64,000 bases of DNA. It comes from an uncultured delta proteobacterium (GTDB lineage: Bacteria > Myxococcota > Myxococcia > Myxococcales > Myxococcaceae). Positions 777-7,467 of this stretch are shown piece by piece; within the stretch, counting starts at the first letter, position 1, and every line of letters starts with the position of its first letter. Made by a program: the position numbers and the translations under genes. The notes under the pieces are model-generated. The model worked only from the letters and a program-made list of their open reading frames with translations, ran no database searches and had not been told where the DNA came from. The stretch covers positions 704,001 through 768,000 of the forward strand of contig CAWCKH010000004.1 of the NCBI GenBank assembly GCA_963796055.1. Reading direction: 5' to 3'.

Positions 777-872
777 GCGGAACGATCAGCCAGGTCAGCG
801 TGCGGTGACCCGGGCCATCCCGGCGCGGGCATCCTCGAGCGCCGCGGCGAGGAGCTCGGCGTCCGTCCGGAG

Positions 873-1337
873 CTAGGGACCCCCGCAGCTGTGCGAGTTC
901 GGTCCGCATTCGAGCCCGGAGCAGCACGGGGTGGGGTCGCAGGACTGTCCCAGCTGGGCGCAGGACACCGCGGCCAGGGCGCGTGGGGCGGTGATGAGGA
1001 GGATCGCCGGGATGGCTGCCAGTCCCAGCTGGCGGATCACCCGGCGCCGGGAAAGCGGCGGCTGCGGCCGGGGAACGGGCCTCTCGAGGAGCCGTGCCTT
1101 CCCCAGACGCTCTACGGTGAGACGGACCACCTCGGGGAGCAGCGGGATGCCCTCCTCGGCCAGCGCCTGCCAGATGGCGGTCACCTCGCGCGTCCCATCG
1201 CAAAGCATCCAGATCCGCGCCGCCCGGCCGTCCAGGCACAGCGCCCGGTGGTGCAGCTCGTCGTAGAGCAGCGTCTCGCCCTCGACGTCTTGCCGGAGCA
1301 GGCCGGTGAGGCGTCGCTCTGGACGAAAGCGCGTCAC
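873..1337 (-). CDS. PqqD/RiPP-recognition-element-like protein with internal twin-arginine signal and C-terminal Cys-rich (knottin-pattern) peptide
   Basis: GTG start overlaps the stop of the upstream giant gene; PqqD-like LLRQDVEGETLLYD..HRALCLD..AARIWMLCDGTR..LTVERL..ARLL; then LSRRRVIRQLGLAAIPAILLITAPRALA; then C-x6-C-x4-CC-x4-C-x6-C. Confidence 0.8.
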   Translation of the reverse strand: MTRFRPERRLTGLLRQDVEGETLLYDELHHRALCLDGRAARIWMLCDGTREVTAIWQALAEEGIPLLPEVVRLTVERLGKARLLERPVPRPQPPLSRRRVIRQLGLAAIPAILLITAPRALAAVSCAQLGQSCDPTPCCSGLECGPNSHSCGGP

Positions 1338-4300
1338 CCGCTCGCCCTCCAGCGCCTCCCACCTCGCGCCCGCCGGGCGAGGATCAGGAGGACGAGCCCG
1401 AAGAGCGCCGCCGCGCTCCCCGGAGCGCCCGCGACGGAGCAACCGGTGGACGCAGGTGGCGGCGCCGCCTGCGGCTTCACCACCAGCCGCGCGCTCGGAT
1501 CGCCGAAGAGGTGCCAGGTCCGGCGCAGGTCCGGGTCGGTCACCGCTGACAGGGCACGCCGGGTCGACTCGCCGAGCGTGGCTCCCTCCACCAGGCCACC
1601 GACCAGCACCCGGTGCAGCCGGGCCTGCTGCGAGGAGACCACCATCCCCGACGAGCTCCAGGTCCCCCATGCGCCTCCCTCGGCGCCCAGCAGGGCCTCC
1701 GACAGGCTCTGCCGGTAGAGGTCGTGGAAGAAGCCGGTGAGGCAGGTCATCTGGACGATGAGCCCGGTCTTGCCGCCGTTCACCAGCGCCGCGGCATCGT
1801 CGCTGGACAGCAGATGCCCGTCCCAGAACGACTCCGCGCCGTGCCCCAGGTAGCTGACCAGCGCCGGGCCCCGGTCGAGGGCGACCAGGATGCGCTCGTG
1901 CACCTCGGCGTCGGTCCCGTCGGCGCGGCGTACCACCTCGGTGGTCCAGCCATCGGTGAGCGGTCGCACCTGGCCCAGGGCCTCGCTGAAGTCGGAGACA
2001 TCGTCGCGGTCGGTGATGTGCAGCACCGTCGCCGCGGGGGCGAGCTGCCGCCGGGCGAGGATCTTCTGCACCATCCGCGAGGCATCCTTCGCCGTTCTCG
2101 CCGGCAGGCGGCCCACCGCCAGGGCGGGCTCTCCCGAGCCGTCGAGGTCCGCCAGCGAACCGTCGGAGGCGGTCTCGAGGAACTGGGTCTGCACCAGCAT
2201 CGTGGGGACCCGGTCCTGCCCGGTTCCCAGGTAGTCCTTGGGGTCGAACGATGCGCTGCCCACCAGGAGCAGGAAACGAGGCTGGCGGGTCCATCGCTGC
2301 AGCGCCTCGCGCACCAGCGCCCGGATGGCCTCCGGGTCCTTCTCCCCGGTGGCGAACTCGTCGTAGACGTCGGCCACGTCGATCACCGCCACCTCGAGCC
2401 CCTCGGCCCGTCGCGCCGCCACCAGCGGCTCGAGGGCGGCGGCGAGGCCGGGCTCGGTGACGATCACCAGATCCGCGCCGGGTCCGGAGCGCCAGGTGCT
2501 GGGCACGTTGGGGACCACGGCCTGGGGAGCGCGCACGTCCCCCTCGCGCACCGCGAGCAGCATCCGCTCCCCCTGGGCGGGCGCCGTCACCCATGGCTGG
2601 CCTCCCGGGTCGGTCTCCACCGGCAGCTCGCCGACCCGCAGCGGATCGGTGACGTCGAAGACGTGGGTGTCGGCCGGCAGGAAGCCGTCGAGCTTCGCCC
2701 GGCGACCTCCCTCCAGGGTGAAGCGCAGCGCTCCGGTGCCGGCGGCGATGTGGCGTAGGTAGCTGATGCGCAGCGCCACCTCGAGTGCGACGCCTCCAGT
2801 GTCGAGCGACCGCAGCTCGACCTGGTTGTCGCCCTCCTGGAGAAGTCCGGGCGGGAGGGCGAAGGTGTGCCGGAAGAGGCTCTGGCCCACGCCCTCGGCA
2901 ATCCCCAGCCAGGTCCGGTTGAAGCTCACTCCGACGCTGTGCGAGCCATCGGTGACTCCCTGCAGCTCGACCTCCAGCTGGGTCGAGCCCTGGTTCGCTG
3001 CCACTCCCTCGACGCGGAAGAACCGGGGCTGGGTCGCGGTGTCGAGCACCAGCGGCCCGAAGAACTTCTCGGCGCTCCCGTTCCGGAGGGCCGCGAAGTA
3101 GACCAGATGGTCCTGGATGAGGAGCGTCTCCGGATACAGGGAGGCCTGGCCGGAGGGGGCGGTCACCAGCAGGGTGGGAAGGGTGCTCCCCGGTCCCATC
3201 GCCGCCGTGAGCCAGTAGACTGCGGTTCTCGTCGAACGGGTTTCCAGGCCGAGGCCGTAGAACTCCACCGCGTCGCCCGGCTCGAGCGTGGACCCGGCAG
3301 CGCGCACGCGAAGCGGGATGCTCTCCGCGGCGCGCCAGAGCGACAGCTGCTGCACCGGGGTGCCGAGGGGGATGCCGGCGGCGGCGAGCTGCTCGGCGGA
3401 CACCCGGTACCAGCCCTCGTCGCGGACCACCAGCTTCGCCGCGGGGGCGGCGGCGAGCTTCGCTTGCCGGTCTCGATCGACGAAAGCCCGCGGCGCCACC
3501 GCCCGCGGAAAGCGGGGCGCACGTTCCATCCGCGCCGCCCCCGCCCCGAGCGCCAGCGCCTCGGCGGCGCGATCCAGCCGCGCGGTCTGCGTTCCGCTCC
3601 GGACCGCCTCATTCCGGGGCAGCGGCTCGACGACCTCCGACCAGGTGCTCCGGCCCTGCAGGTCGATCGCCTCGAGCAGGTAGGACGCTCCCGGAGGAGC
3701 CTGCGCGCTCTCCCAGGAATACCCCCGGGCGTCGGGAACCCGTGCCCGCGTCCGGAGCGCCGGACCCTCGAGCAATCCGGGGGTCAGCAGCGTCCTGCGC
3801 CCGCGCCACAGCTGCCACACCCGGTACCCGATGATCCGGAGCTCGTCCGCACCTCGCCAGGAGAGGCGGACCCCGTCGGGCCCGACCGAGCCCTGCGTCG
3901 CCATGAAGCGGACGGCATTGGGGTCCACCGGGCTGAGGGCCAGGGCCAGATAGGCCCAGTTGCCCCCCGCCGCCGGCGTCCAGCTCAGGGTGTTGGTCCC
4001 GGTGCCCGCGGCGGCCACGCTGGAGGCGCCACCGCGCAGCGTGCCGGCGGCGAGGTTCCAGGTGGCGGTCTGCCCGGTGCCGGGAGCCAGCGGCGGCGCG
4101 GCCGGTGCAGCCAGCGCGTCGAGGACGATCTGCCCCGCGGCGGAGAGGACGCCGAGGCTCACCGTCCCACCGGTACCGGCCCCGCTCACCGGGACGGTGG
4201 TCGGGTCGCGCTGGTTGATGCCGGTGAACGACTCCGAGCCGGCGACGATGTTCGCCACCGCACTGGTGGTGACGGTGACCGTCGCCGTGCCCGGCGCGGG

Positions 4301-6859
4301 CTGCTTGAGGCCGAAGAACGACACCCGGGTGTTCCCCTGGGCCGCGGTGCCGAGCTGGGTGAGGGGCACGCCTCCGTAGCTGACCGAGGAGACCGCCGCC
4401 ACGCCGTCGTTGGACACCCCCACCACCAGGAAGCGATCGTTGCCGCTGGCCACGGTGTGCGGCCAGCTGGCCGTGCTCTGTCCGGAGACGGCCACCGAGC
4501 CGACCTGGCAGGCGTCCCCCACTCCGTCGGAGTTGGAGTCGGTCTGCGCGGGGTTGAACACCGCGGGACAGTTGTCACCGCCGTTGGGCACCCCGTCGTT
4601 GTCCGCGTCGGGGGCAAAGGTGGCGGTCACGGTCTGGGTGGCGCTGGCCACGATGTTGTGGCTCTGCCCCCCGGAGTCCGACCAGCTCTGGAAGACGTGG
4701 GGGATGCCCTGGAGGTAGGCCGGCGAGGCCGCGCCGATGGAGTTGGTGGTGCCCTGGATCACCGTCCGGGTGAAGGGAGCGACCGCCGTCTCCGGTCCCA
4801 GGGTGAGCAGCGCCCCGGGGGGGACGGAGTCGACGGTGAGCAGGACCGTCTTCGGCTGGAGGTTGACCGAGGTCTGCCGGGTGAGCCCCCCGGAGTCGGT
4901 CACCGAGAGAATGACCTCGAGGTACGACGGGTAGTCGTGCTCGGGCCCGGGGAAGCTGGCCGAGGCCACCCCGTCGAAGTGGGCCCAGTCGTGGGTGTGG
5001 CAGCTGCCACCCGGGCAATGGTGGATGACCACGTCCCAGTGGAGCGCGGAGGCCGGCAGTGCCCCGTCCTCGGCGTCGGTGGCGTGACCGGAGAAGGTGA
5101 TGCTGTCGCCGACCGCCCAGGTGAGGGAAGGCGACGGCGTGTCGATGACCGGGAGGGGAGGGGTGTTGTCGACGTCGATGGTGACCGAGGCGGTGTCGAA
5201 GGCCCCGAAGGCATCGGTCACCCGGACCGAGGCGGGGTGTGAGCCTGCGCCATAGGTGAACGAGGCAGTGGGCGCGTCCGGCGCGTCGGTGAACAGGCCG
5301 TTGCCGTCCAGGTCCCAGGCGAAGCTGAGCGGCGCCGTGCCGGTGGATGCGGAGGCATCGAAGGCGACGGTGAGCGGCGATGTCCCGCTGGTGGGCGTGG
5401 CGGTGAGGCTGGCCACCGGGGCCCCGTACTGGATCCGCCAGATCCTCCCGCCCACGATGTCGGCAAAGTAGATGTCCCCTCCCGGACCGGCCTGGACGTC
5501 GACGGGGTACGAGGCGTTGCTGGTGAAGACCTGGATCTGGGCGGGATCCGGCAGCCCGTTGGGTCCGGGCAGCATGGCCCAGATGCAGCGCACCGAATAG
5601 TCGGCGAAGAAGAGCGCGTCCCGGAACTGCGGCGGGTACGCGCTGCCCTCGTAGAAGGCCAGCCCGGAGATGGAGGCGCTGCCGCTGGTGCAGACCCCGG
5701 TGTCCCAGCCGGGGGCGCGTCCGTGCTGGTAGGCGTACCAGGGAAAGTCGAGCCTGGTGGGGAAGAAGGTTCCCCCGTCGAAGGGGCCGAGGGGAATCCC
5801 GCCGTCCAGGTTGGTCCCGGTTCCGGCGTCCATCTTGTACATCGCGGTGCAGAAGGGAAAGACGTTGTAACCGCTCTCCTTCTCGATGTTTTCCCAGCAG
5901 GGCCAGCCGAAGTTCGTCACCGGGGACTGGTGGGCGTCCGGGAGGCGGTGGATCTCCTCCCACTTGTTCCAGCCCACGTTGCCGATCCACAGTTCGCTGG
6001 TGCCGGGGCGCATCGTCATCCGGAAGGGATTGCGCAGTCCCACCGCGACGACGCGGTCCGCCGCGGGAAGCCGATTGAACAGCGGGTTGTCGGGGGGCGC
6101 CGTGCCGTCCAGCGGGTCGAGCCGGAGGAGGCTGCCGGAGAAGGTCATCGAGTCCGACGGGGTGAGGAGGTCCTGCGAGCGCAGCGCCCCTCCCTGTCCC
6201 TGCGGATCGCCGCAGGGGTTCCCGGCGTCGGCGGCGAAGGAGTCCCCCTGGTCGGCGAAGACGTAGCTCGCTCCGTCCCCGGCGGAGAGGTACAGCATCC
6301 CGTCCGCCCCGAAGACCAGATCGCCGATCGAGTGACTGGCGTATTGCTGGCACCACTGCCTCTCGATCAGCGGCTGCTCGGGGCCCACCAGCTGGTTGCT
6401 GGCGTCGACGTTCAGCCGCGACAGCCGACCGGTGATGAAGCAGTAGCCGCCGTTGACCCCGCCGGTGCAGGAGCTGCCGTCGTTGGGGTACGTCCCGCCA
6501 TCCGGCGCCTGGGCGGCGGAGTAGAGGATGTAGACGTAGGGGATGGCCGGGAACGCCGGATGGATGGCGAGCCCGAGGAGCCCACGATCGCCTCCGTTGA
6601 ACACCTTGTCGCGGATGTCCAGCACCACATCGGGCGTGGAGTCGGTGAGACCATCGAAGACCTTGAGCACGCCCTTGCGCTCGGCGACGAAGACTCGCCC
6701 GTCGGGGGCGAAGCGGAAGGCGACCGGATTGTCCAGCCCGCTGAAGATGCTCGTCTGGCTGAAGTTGGGCGAGTAGAGCTGCGCCCGGGCCAGGCCGGCG
6801 AGCAGCGCGACGGCAAGCGCGACCGAGCAGCGCAGTCGCAGACCTCGCCGTCCACCCAT
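1334..6859 (-). CDS. large secreted multidomain protein: glucose/sorbosone dehydrogenase-like beta-propeller + PKD + thrombospondin type-3 repeat + C25 (gingipain-like) cysteine peptidase + MYXO-CTERM-like anchor
   Basis: Signal peptide ending LARA-Q; GSDH motifs PDGRVFVAER, DRGLLGLAIHPAF, FGADGMLYLSAGDG, GLRNPFR; PKD WDLDGNG; TSP3 DADNDGVPNGGDNCPAVFNPAQTDSNSDGVGDAC; C25 motifs FLLLVG, LAVGRLP, YLGHG, MTCLTG, LFGDP; C-terminal GCSVAG + TM helix + RR. Confidence 0.85.
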   Translation of the reverse strand: MGGRRGLRLRCSVALAVALLAGLARAQLYSPNFSQTSIFSGLDNPVAFRFAPDGRVFVAERKGVLKVFDGLTDSTPDVVLDIRDKVFNGGDRGLLGLAIHPAFPAIPYVYILYSAAQAPDGGTYPNDGSSCTGGVNGGYCFITGRLSRLNVDASNQLVGPEQPLIERQWCQQYASHSIGDLVFGADGMLYLSAGDGASYVFADQGDSFAADAGNPCGDPQGQGGALRSQDLLTPSDSMTFSGSLLRLDPLDGTAPPDNPLFNRLPAADRVVAVGLRNPFRMTMRPGTSELWIGNVGWNKWEEIHRLPDAHQSPVTNFGWPCWENIEKESGYNVFPFCTAMYKMDAGTGTNLDGGIPLGPFDGGTFFPTRLDFPWYAYQHGRAPGWDTGVCTSGSASISGLAFYEGSAYPPQFRDALFFADYSVRCIWAMLPGPNGLPDPAQIQVFTSNASYPVDVQAGPGGDIYFADIVGGRIWRIQYGAPVASLTATPTSGTSPLTVAFDASASTGTAPLSFAWDLDGNGLFTDAPDAPTASFTYGAGSHPASVRVTDAFGAFDTASVTIDVDNTPPLPVIDTPSPSLTWAVGDSITFSGHATDAEDGALPASALHWDVVIHHCPGGSCHTHDWAHFDGVASASFPGPEHDYPSYLEVILSVTDSGGLTRQTSVNLQPKTVLLTVDSVPPGALLTLGPETAVAPFTRTVIQGTTNSIGAASPAYLQGIPHVFQSWSDSGGQSHNIVASATQTVTATFAPDADNDGVPNGGDNCPAVFNPAQTDSNSDGVGDACQVGSVAVSGQSTASWPHTVASGNDRFLVVGVSNDGVAAVSSVSYGGVPLTQLGTAAQGNTRVSFFGLKQPAPGTATVTVTTSAVANIVAGSESFTGINQRDPTTVPVSGAGTGGTVSLGVLSAAGQIVLDALAAPAAPPLAPGTGQTATWNLAAGTLRGGASSVAAAGTGTNTLSWTPAAGGNWAYLALALSPVDPNAVRFMATQGSVGPDGVRLSWRGADELRIIGYRVWQLWRGRRTLLTPGLLEGPALRTRARVPDARGYSWESAQAPPGASYLLEAIDLQGRSTWSEVVEPLPRNEAVRSGTQTARLDRAAEALALGAGAARMERAPRFPRAVAPRAFVDRDRQAKLAAAPAAKLVVRDEGWYRVSAEQLAAAGIPLGTPVQQLSLWRAAESIPLRVRAAGSTLEPGDAVEFYGLGLETRSTRTAVYWLTAAMGPGSTLPTLLVTAPSGQASLYPETLLIQDHLVYFAALRNGSAEKFFGPLVLDTATQPRFFRVEGVAANQGSTQLEVELQGVTDGSHSVGVSFNRTWLGIAEGVGQSLFRHTFALPPGLLQEGDNQVELRSLDTGGVALEVALRISYLRHIAAGTGALRFTLEGGRRAKLDGFLPADTHVFDVTDPLRVGELPVETDPGGQPWVTAPAQGERMLLAVREGDVRAPQAVVPNVPSTWRSGPGADLVIVTEPGLAAALEPLVAARRAEGLEVAVIDVADVYDEFATGEKDPEAIRALVREALQRWTRQPRFLLLVGSASFDPKDYLGTGQDRVPTMLVQTQFLETASDGSLADLDGSGEPALAVGRLPARTAKDASRMVQKILARRQLAPAATVLHITDRDDVSDFSEALGQVRPLTDGWTTEVVRRADGTDAEVHERILVALDRGPALVSYLGHGAESFWDGHLLSSDDAAALVNGGKTGLIVQMTCLTGFFHDLYRQSLSEALLGAEGGAWGTWSSSGMVVSSQQARLHRVLVGGLVEGATLGESTRRALSAVTDPDLRRTWHLFGDPSARLVVKPQAAPPPASTGCSVAGAPGSAAALFGLVLLILARRARGGRRWRASG

Positions 6860-6919
6860 CGGGAGCACCCCCGAACGGCGAGTAGTTCTCTGCTCGCAAC
6901 GCCGCTGCAAGTGGGTCTC

Positions 6920-7332
6920 TCACGACCCGACGCATTGCCCACGGTCAGAGCCACGGGGTGACCTCTCGTCGGACGCGCCCTCGCTGAGGACCTCCCGCGA
7001 GAGCTGCTCGATGCCGCCTCCGGTCCTCTCCAGCACCTCGGCCAGCCGCTCCACCACCGCGTCGAGAAGTCCGGTGAGGACCTTGAGAGGTGTCGTGCTC
7101 GGCCGGCTTCGCGTCGGGCCGGGCGGCGAACACCTGGAACGCGACCGGGTTCGCGTAGCGCACGGTCACCAGCCGCTCGGGGGTGAGGATGAAGCTCACC
7201 GCCGTGCTCTGGGGCTGTGGGGTGTCGGACCGGACGAGAAAGCGTCGCGGTCATGAACAGCACGTCCTTCTCCTGGTAGAGGCGGCTCGACGGCTCCAGG
7301 GCCTCCATCTCGTCGCGGGTGGGGATCTCCTG
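6920..7332 (-). pseudogene. corA: CorA-family magnesium transporter remnant
   Basis: Three consecutive frames join into EIPTRDEMEALEPSSRLYQEKDVLFMTATL / VSFILTPERLVTVRYANPVAF / VLTGLLDAVVERLAEVLE; frameshifts near 7240 and 7088; no N-terminus and no C-terminal GMN/TM region. Confidence 0.75.
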
Positions 7333-7467
7333 GCCGATAGGCGAAGCGCTGTCAGCCAAGAGTACGTGCTTCTTGCACTTTCTCTCTGCTTCCATGACTG
7401 CATCGCATGGACACTAGAATCCAATCCGGCCGCGGAGCTGCTGGCAGACTGTTAGGATTGCCGCACT

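Follow-up and report, generated by a model that had tools for sequence, protein, structure and literature searches.

An inserted gene pair of a myxobacterium encoding a PorU-like C25 peptidase and a fused RRE-leader-knottin protein, with a proposed relation to a surface cassette

We analyzed a stretch of 64,000 nucleotides (the window; positions 704,001 to 768,000 of contig CAWCKH010000004.1) from an uncultured member of the Myxococcaceae, which harbors two overlapping genes. The product of the giant gene ends with a cysteine peptidase domain of family C25, while the product of the small gene combines a RiPP recognition element (RRE; RiPP, a peptide made by ribosomes and then modified post-translationally), a leader resembling a signal for twin-arginine translocation (Tat) and a predicted knottin core. 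All features are compiled in Table 1. As had been deduced in an initial annotation, the open reading frames (ORFs) run from 6859 to 1334 and from 1337 to 873 and overlap by GTGA (1334-1337), in which the TGA of the giant gene occupies 1336-1334 and the GTG of the small gene 1337-1335. A GGAGG sequence lies 8 nt upstream of this GTG. The start is common to four orthologues from metagenomes (70-78% identity), which keep every key residue; a metagenome scan aimed at close orthologues yielded three distant short loci only. The boundaries of the pair also agreed with the annotation: on one side convergent genes have their ends at 564 and 776, on the other a decayed corA remnant (6963-7338) shows 75-79% DNA identity to intact genes of two relatives, which score as CorA. 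Likewise, radical SAM, YcaO, lasso cyclase and pqq families, reported to be missing nearby, were not detected by Pfam among 42 window ORFs (6 and 36, chosen by codon bias).

The region from 777 to 7400, flanked by a DUF3106 operon and an acyl-CoA transferase-GNAT gene, is a variable site. In relatives of the genus this site is empty, contains corA or carries different cargo. The flanking genes are adjacent in G010, G008 and G007 (gaps of approximately 90, 240 and 300 bases, respectively), intact corA genes reside at the corresponding site in G006 and G012 and another gene in G003, and the pair was seen there in none of the 12 other genomes of the genus. Since the flanks adjoin each other in these relatives, the pair is, judged by its sequence context, an insertion that apparently moved as a unit. 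Neither a composition step nor a terminal repeat bounding the insertion was found, nor were promoter-like or terminator-like sites at the pair.

The C25 domain of the giant protein was recognized by Pfam with E 2e-64 (218 bits, cut-off 23). Its His/Cys dyad, already judged to be intact, could be assigned to exact codons (1841-1843 and 1742-1744), and both His1673 and Cys1706 are invariant in all 51 aligned C25 domains. A search of solved structures with the single sequence gave no match. With the profile of the 51 sequences, PorU (PDB 6za2) was the best match (E 1.4e-36), along the full profile length and with the same His/Cys spacing, compared to 9e-23 for RgpB and 1e-14 for Kgp. These two gingipains share the C25 fold and the dyad, but match the profile more weakly and have a different domain layout. 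The N-terminal region of PorU was also matched in the window giant, on which the PorU model NF033707 gave 158 bits and did not reach its cut-off of 420. Unlike PorU, the window module sits behind variable passengers, with up to 26 copies per genome, and the giant lacks a type IX tail; the type IX cargo domain PF18962 was not found in the genome, in a search in which the control genome gave no match either. By these sequence comparisons the window peptidase is closer to the sortase PorU than to the gingipains, and a cut at the twin arginine of the small protein is therefore unlikely.

The giants have a common layout, in which a variable passenger is followed by a P-T-A-V-like junction, a beta-rich domain, a PorU-like region and the C25 domain. 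The junction, P-N-A-V in the window copy, was detected in 39 of 47 giants with a loose pattern applied without a shuffle control. No Pfam match was obtained for the beta-rich domain, which occurs together with the PorU-like module in all four cases of the genome and in 61 of the 66 hits at the loci; the remaining five hits resemble truncated or frameshifted parts of these giant genes. Myxobacterial giants possess a membrane tail, of which GC, helix and basic end are present in the window giant (TIGR03901 16.9 versus 20 bits), and the listed acidobacterial giants, which stop few residues past C25, do not. Most likely, the PorU-like module processes or anchors its own passenger, self-processing being suggested by the module layout. 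In a relative, a gene (G006:C80:16548-18561) shows 65-75% DNA identity to the dehydrogenase-like passenger of the window, and its contig has no C25 match. As this passenger-like gene stands without C25, the module seems to acquire its passengers by shuffling. The genomes G337, G383, G342 and G332 each encode 16-26 C25-ended giants, whose passengers all differ; those examined have no membrane tail.

The small protein gave a weak sequence match to PqqD (E 1.4e-4, 22.6 bits, cut-off 23.4). In its structure model (pLDDT 92) the RRE resembles the lasso B1 protein 6jx3_B (Z 9.4, root mean square deviation 2.4, 82 aligned residues) and 5v1u_A (Z 8.8), and a helix (97-104), a strand (112-115) and a knottin tail follow. 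Another structural match, to NisB, extended as far as residue 119 of the model and was not drawn upon. With its C-C-CC-C-C spacing and knottin fold matches to spider and sponge proteins (E 0.5-2), which say nothing about function, the core is similar to inhibitor-cystine-knot mini-proteins, but is bacterial and placed behind an RRE and a Tat-like leader. Conservation was calculated from 298 of 317 family sequences, 19 being dropped for gaps, and amounted to 100% for R97, 99% each for R98, P110, V/I112 and P118, 92% for Ser/Thr125 and 89% for C126. Tat signals are laid out as a twin-arginine head, a hydrophobic stretch and an A-x-A motif. All these features occur in the family, as a S/T-R-R-x-hydrophobic head, a hydrophobic stretch (median 18 residues in 250 pattern-fitting sequences) and an A-x-A-type motif (229 of these 250), the signal being internal (amino acids 96-122). 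The relative P0046 scored above the cut-off of TAT_signal_seq (TIGR01409), the window protein matched only TIGR02811 and weakly, and TatC is encoded in the genome. Thus, the Arg-rich precursor of the initial annotation does contain the RR, but the segment resembles a twin-arginine signal and not a generic Arg-rich linker. The predicted core of the window starts with A-V-S-C, Ser being third, and the predicted cores of the family start with small residues.

The family comprises 4,712 clusters at 50% identity (E up to 1e-10), of which the weaker matches may include plain PqqD proteins, and its members are labelled only as 'PqqD family' or 'hypothetical'. A locus search using the window small protein alone gave no matches. 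Two Cys residues of the RRE, C34 (1237-1239) and C46 (1200-1202), are kept in 90% and 92% of the sequences, respectively, with His residues nearby. To our knowledge such a conserved pair is unusual among PqqD domains; it could be a disulfide or a metal site. The core is extended by an intein-like (Hint) domain in P0124 (NCBIfam) and P0160 (by eye) and replaced by collagen-like Gly-x-y repeats in P0142 and P0178. Since cores are swapped or extended in relatives, RRE and leader appear to form a portable export head.

Table 1. Positions of the features at the gene pair, numbered from the first base of the window (aa, amino acids)
Feature	Position	Strand	Basis or remark
Giant gene	1334..6859	-	1841 aa; passenger (variable) after a signal peptide, then PorU-like module (conserved) and membrane tail
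Sec-type signal peptide, aa 1-26, ending A-R-A	6782..6859	-	read by eye from sequence
Passenger: glucose/sorbosone-dehydrogenase-type propeller, aa 42-332	5864..6736	-	PF07995, E 1.6e-29
Passenger: PKD-like domain, aa 484-560	5180..5410	-	PF00801, E 0.0018, below cut-off
Passenger: thrombospondin type 3 repeat, aa 751-772	4544..4609	-	PF02412
P-N-A-V junction, aa 980-983, passenger/module boundary	3911..3922	-	candidate self-cleavage site (putative role)
Conserved linker module: beta-rich domain, then PorU N-terminal-like region	2468..3910	-	NF033707 and NF052324, both below cut-off
Peptidase C25 catalytic domain, aa 1465-1792	1484..2467	-	Pfam and profile; closest solved relative PorU
Catalytic His1673	1841..1843	-	sequence; alignment of C25 domains
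Catalytic Cys1706	1742..1744	-	sequence; alignment of C25 domains
MYXO-CTERM-like membrane tail, aa 1805-1833	1361..1447	-	TIGR03901, 16.9 bits, cut-off 20
GTGA stop/start overlap	1334..1337	-	sequence
Small gene	873..1337	-	154 aa; RRE, Tat-like leader and knottin core in a single chain
RRE (PqqD-fold) domain, aa 4-87	1077..1328	-	fold match to 6jx3_B
Twin arginine R97-R98	1044..1049	-	100% (R97) and 99% (R98) of the 298 family members
Hydrophobic leader G105-P118 with P110-x-I112	984..1025	-	predicted docking on own RRE
A-x-A motif A120-L121-A122	972..980	-	predicted signal-peptidase site; putative cleavage
Ser125, predicted core residue 3	963..965	-	candidate kinase site; Ser/Thr in 92% of 298; analogy to LppA Ser3
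Predicted core, aa 123-154, six-Cys knottin (C126, 133, 138, 139, 144, 151)	876..971	-	fold, couplings, spacing
corA remnant, 5' part	6963..7338	-	upstream boundary of inserted pair

Residue couplings within the family connect the RRE with its own leader. The strongest coupling of all was C126-C139 within the core, and the top 28 of 10,585 pairs included the RRE-leader pairs A81-I112, A39-Q103, V70-I109, L33-L114, A60-I109, R31-I115, D36-P110, A39-I112 and L73-I109. At z>=4, nine such pairs were obtained (six after removing the myxobacterial rows, 238 rows being left) versus none in each of 12 row shuffles, which erase shared ancestry along with contacts, so that the significance is overstated, although the pattern as such is specific. 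Position 36, Asp in the window copy, is Asn in 90% of the family. In the crystal structure of LppB-LppA, as presented in PMC13381572, the leader Pro is fixed by an Asn at a strand end, a pocket formed by strand and helix holds the residue Pro+2, and the sheet is enlarged by the leader; the coevolving contacts of the small protein agree with those reported there. The RRE is thus strongly predicted from sequence to bind its own leader in cis via P-x-I, as lasso leaders are bound, and this is the best-supported step of the scheme proposed below. A service of the RRE to the giant protein is disfavoured because its binding cleft coevolves with the own leader.

The distribution of the two families was determined by neighbourhood counts. 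Within the genus, 14 of 16 small genes lie up to 10 kb from a C25 gene on the same strand, both misses being near contig ends, and a small gene was found near 19 of 26 C25 matches, the seven misses being on contigs shorter than 20 kb. Among 61 genomes of the acidobacterial class of G322, a C25 gene was located no more than 10 kb from at least 22 of the 67 small genes, compared to about 1.5 expected if C25 were scattered. All 22 linked pairs are on the same strand, and nine of the 67 small genes are located directly downstream of C25 as in the window. Considering the C25 matches listed, 25 of the 61 genomes, which are kin and not independent, contain both genes, 12 only C25, eight only the small gene and 16 neither. 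Hence, 12 of 37 C25 genomes lack the small gene and eight of 33 small-gene genomes lack C25. A small gene is near only 28 of the 151 listed C25 genes of this class, for which about 30 further matches exist. Nine genomes outside the genus gave a strong C25 match and a partial or no match of the small protein. In a quick tree (139 columns, without the window protein and most myxobacterial rows), the order C25 then small gene occurred in 16 of 98 rows and needed at least four changes, which supports only that the link was gained or lost several times. Thus, the link between C25 and the small gene is real, but not obligate. Counting how often a PqqD-RR-Cys gene accompanies C25 showed that the families do co-occur, above chance, on the same strand and across phyla. 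To this extent the two-gene system postulated previously stands, but a closed system is not supported; the commoner partners of the small protein are NTP_transf_5 and an HprK-like kinase.

These partners became evident from 77 loci, which were obtained by a pattern search (best 80 of 114 confirmed matches) biased to one motif and one seed. Most loci belong to Acidobacteriota; Gemmatimonadota, Nitrospinota, Binatia, Chloroflexia, Methylomirabilis and Clostridia are also represented. The partner counts are lower bounds, since flanks were limited to 10 kb and 39 of the loci did not reach 20 kb. Using profiles built in this study, NTP_transf_5 was found in 63, the HprK-like kinase in 47 and C25 or the PorU-like region in 24 loci; at 53 loci no C25 was present within the flank. 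Kinase and nucleotidyltransferase occur together in 44 loci, at least one of them in 66 and neither in 11. Other partners are polysaccharide-type genes (36 of 77), a MauE-thioredoxin fusion (13 of 77) and an asparagine-synthase homologue (8 of 77), which scores better as polysaccharide amidotransferase. The fusion, composed of MauE/DoxX and a double thioredoxin (L133:7480-9063 and 12 other loci), is likely a disulfide catalyst for the core. Three further neighbour families recur in 16, 14 and nine of the 77 loci (L160:6385-7104, L162:5738-7051 and L156:12174-13373) and have no Pfam or NCBIfam match. In the part of the annotated neighbour clusters that was scanned, neither a SpI-like peptidase nor a MsbA-like exporter was present.

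The genome of the window encodes the small protein three times and C25 peptidases four times. At a second locus (C4:1808577-1824922) the gene order is RRE, NTP_transf_5, C25, RRE, NTP_transf_5, C25, C25, and both nucleotidyltransferases keep D-x-D. An HprK-like kinase gene (C4:1799323-1800570) lies 8 kb upstream of this locus, beyond an efflux cassette; in G003 and in a sister genus the kinase directly precedes the RRE gene. Within the full cassette (C4:1799323-1824922), the genes between kinase and RRE form, as read from sequence, a divergent outer-membrane/adaptor/RND-type efflux trio, which adjoins the RRE gene in several relatives of the genus. A third, more distant NTP_transf_5 gene (C4:938136-938825, L173) resides among polysaccharide-type genes without an adjoining RRE gene. 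In another genome (G004:C21:677308-683962) a copy of the cassette exhibits several frameshifts in the C25, nucleotidyltransferase and RRE genes, reflecting decay or an assembly error. No lasso B2 peptidase scored above the cut-off in the genome of the window, whereas the control matched; pqqC was not found there in a search in which the control gave no match either.

The small-gene loci share several traits with the systems for linear polyphosphorylated peptides (LPP) of Bacillota as described in PMC13381572. There too, an RRE, an HprK-like kinase and an uncharacterised NTP transferase occur without a macrocyclase in polysaccharide loci, the RRE binds the leader via a Pro-x-hydrophobic motif, and the cut is of signal-peptidase type. 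The kinase LppK phosphorylates Ser3 of the core (PMC13381572), and the window core has Ser at position 3. On the other hand, RRE, leader and core are fused here in one ORF of 154 amino acids, also in relatives, whereas the LPP RRE described is discrete. The leader is of the twin-arginine type and keeps P110 and V/I112, but not the Tyr of the YxxPxV motif, the residue three before P110 being V, A, I or L in the family and not Tyr. Moreover, no dedicated SpI or MsbA gene was found among the scanned common neighbours, the core is a disulfide knot, the phyla are diderm and there is a link to C25 giants. Given the fusion of the RRE and the lack of the Tyr motif, the small protein falls outside LPP; by analogy, its mode of action may be that of the LPP phosphopeptide system, the RRE, leader and knottin core being joined in one chain.

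Phosphorylated and phosphoglycosylated lasso peptides (paeninodin with PadeK; pseudomycoidin with PsmK/PsmN), in the descriptions given in PMC9266682 and PMC6993621, are alike in the B1-type RRE fold, a kinase of the HprK family and an NTP transferase with a D-x-D motif. In pseudomycoidin, PsmN is required for a hexose on phospho-Ser (PMC6993621, PMC9266682). Unlike these systems, the small-gene loci contain no lasso cyclase or B2 peptidase, the kinase motif ends with D-E, and the candidate Ser is placed at the start of the core instead of the C-terminus. HPr-rel-A also combines an HprK-related kinase (TIGR04352) with a PqqD-family protein (TIGR04353). Both models matched weakly and below their cut-offs, TIGR04353 giving 23.9 versus 35 bits on the representatives, and here the PqqD domain is fused to leader and core. 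In the literature covered, which did not extend to subscription papers, no description of the RRE-leader-knottin precursor family or of its C25 link was found; the supplements of PMC13381572 could list such clusters.

On balance, we lean towards the view that the window pair derives as a satellite from a surface cassette of four parts, and that the small protein is a precursor which recognises itself and is modified in trans, and for which the peptidase is not the maturase. The cassette would be made up of the kinase, the RRE-fused precursor, the nucleotidyltransferase and one or more C25 giants, the pair having been inserted at the variable site. In the first step, which is strongly predicted, P110-x-I112 would occupy the cleft of the own RRE, to which A111-T116 would add a strand, and the hydrophobic part of the signal would be masked. 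The HprK-like kinase of the second locus may then phosphorylate Ser/Thr at the core start, and an NTP_transf_5 enzyme would cap the phosphate, probably with a sugar. Finally, Tat would export the modified core, signal peptidase I would cut at A-x-A with the RRE staying inside, and the disulfides would form outside. The giant would be a Sec-exported surface protein, co-expressed with the precursor in the same surface programme, and not its leader peptidase.

Several findings weigh against this proposal. Kinase and nucleotidyltransferase are not encoded close to the window copy and would have to act in trans, at a distance of 1.1 Mb. In the kinase, His, the Walker A Lys and Asp are retained, but the fourth position is Glu (H-K-D-E versus H-K-D-D of lasso kinases), and TIGR04352 gave 65.3 versus 200 bits on kinase representatives. 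Ser/Thr before the first Cys is present in 21 of 29 C25-linked copies versus 63 of 65 others, several copies, mostly of related genomes, having Asn. Because the C25-linked copies keep Ser/Thr less often, this site is only a candidate. Furthermore, a folded domain preceding a Tat signal is unusual, the coupling significance is overstated as mentioned above, and the C25 link in the genus (14 of 16) is tighter than a common neighbourhood requires. The counterpart of the S1 residue Asp163 of RgpB, at the start of helix 1 and within a low-confidence gap region, is D1623 (61% of the 51 domains) or F1624 (96%).

A possible, though rather unlikely, alternative is an anchoring independent of type IX secretion, in which the Tat-exported, phospho-glycosylated, self-recognising knottin would be the acceptor for passengers of a built-in PorU-like sortase. 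The module would cut its own chain at P-T/N-A-V and join the passenger to the N-terminal amine of the released knottin, whose sugar-phosphate would tie it to surface polysaccharide. According to the description in PMC7468200, PorU attaches cargo to a Ser or Gly amine on a linking sugar, and the predicted cores begin with small residues. The frequent junction motif (39 of 47 giants), the domain behind it seen only with the PorU-like module, the acidobacterial giants ending right behind C25 without an anchor, the same-strand linkage (22 of 22) and the movement of the pair as a unit are also in line with such a role. It fits less well that the small gene is near just 28 of 151 listed C25 genes and missing from 12 of 37 C25 genomes, that 53 of 77 small-gene loci have no C25 in the flank, that the window giant already bears a membrane tail and that the junction pattern is loose and was applied without a shuffle control.

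It is unlikely that functional link and modification are both missing, the small protein being a mini-protein for export that contains its own signal chaperone and hitchhikes in surface-gene islands, and the window copy perhaps a drifting leftover. Each family does occur alone, the site is a hotspot with different cargo in relatives, and 11 of 77 loci lack both enzymes; yet 66 loci have at least one, both ORFs are intact, and the four orthologues keep the key residues.

We regard it as improbable that the knottin, according to the second option of the initial annotation, serves as an inhibitor or cofactor which is co-expressed with C25 and keeps it latent until it is outside. Many knottins are protease inhibitors, and the knottin fold, the translational coupling by GTGA and the order C25 then small gene (9 of 67 acidobacterial copies; 16 of 98 tree rows with at least four changes) would suit this function. 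However, small genes number 1-6 in genomes that have 9-26 C25 genes, the residues of the inter-Cys loops vary across the family, some relatives have collagen-like repeats or intein-like domains, and kinase, nucleotidyltransferase and the conserved Ser/Thr would be left unexplained.

Maturation of the precursor by gingipain-like cleavage after Arg, which the initial annotation had offered, is very doubtful. It could draw on the intact dyad, on D1623 adjoining the position of Asp163, on which the Arg preference of RgpB depends (PMC4357240, as far as described there), and on Arg in the c-region of myxobacterial leaders. Against it stand the proximity to PorU, which is described to cleave sequence-independently (PMC4804311), the RR, which as head of a Tat-like signal would be retained on the inner side, out of reach of the exported peptidase, the A-x-A junction (229 of 250), Arg/Lys directly ahead of the core in only three of 250 pattern-fitting sequences, and the 53 of 77 loci without C25 nearby. 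That the PqqD domain supplies pyrroloquinoline quinone (PQQ) for the dehydrogenase-like passenger, which has a PQQ-dehydrogenase-type fold, or chaperones export of the giant, as also suggested initially, is scarcely tenable, since a paralogous giant next to such a small gene has passenger-associated repeats instead and coevolution ties the RRE cleft to the protein's own leader.

The association recognized in the earlier reading of the window is real, but its framing was too narrow. If the satellite proposal is true, the RRE would act in cis as a lock on the Tat signal, so that the peptide is modified before leaving, and RiPP leader recognition would be joined to Tat proofreading. A substrate and a residue would be named for orphan HprK/NTP_transf_5 pairs, whose role in LPPs is stated as unknown in PMC13381572. 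PorU-like peptidases outside Bacteroidota, of which some acidobacterial genomes have up to 26 copies, would also become accessible to testing through the pair. Should the knottin indeed serve as an anchor, the RiPP-like kinase/nucleotidyltransferase modules in polysaccharide loci would gain a biological role. As far as its sequence suggests, the pair points to a way by which soil-type bacteria may decorate, and perhaps anchor, their surface proteins.

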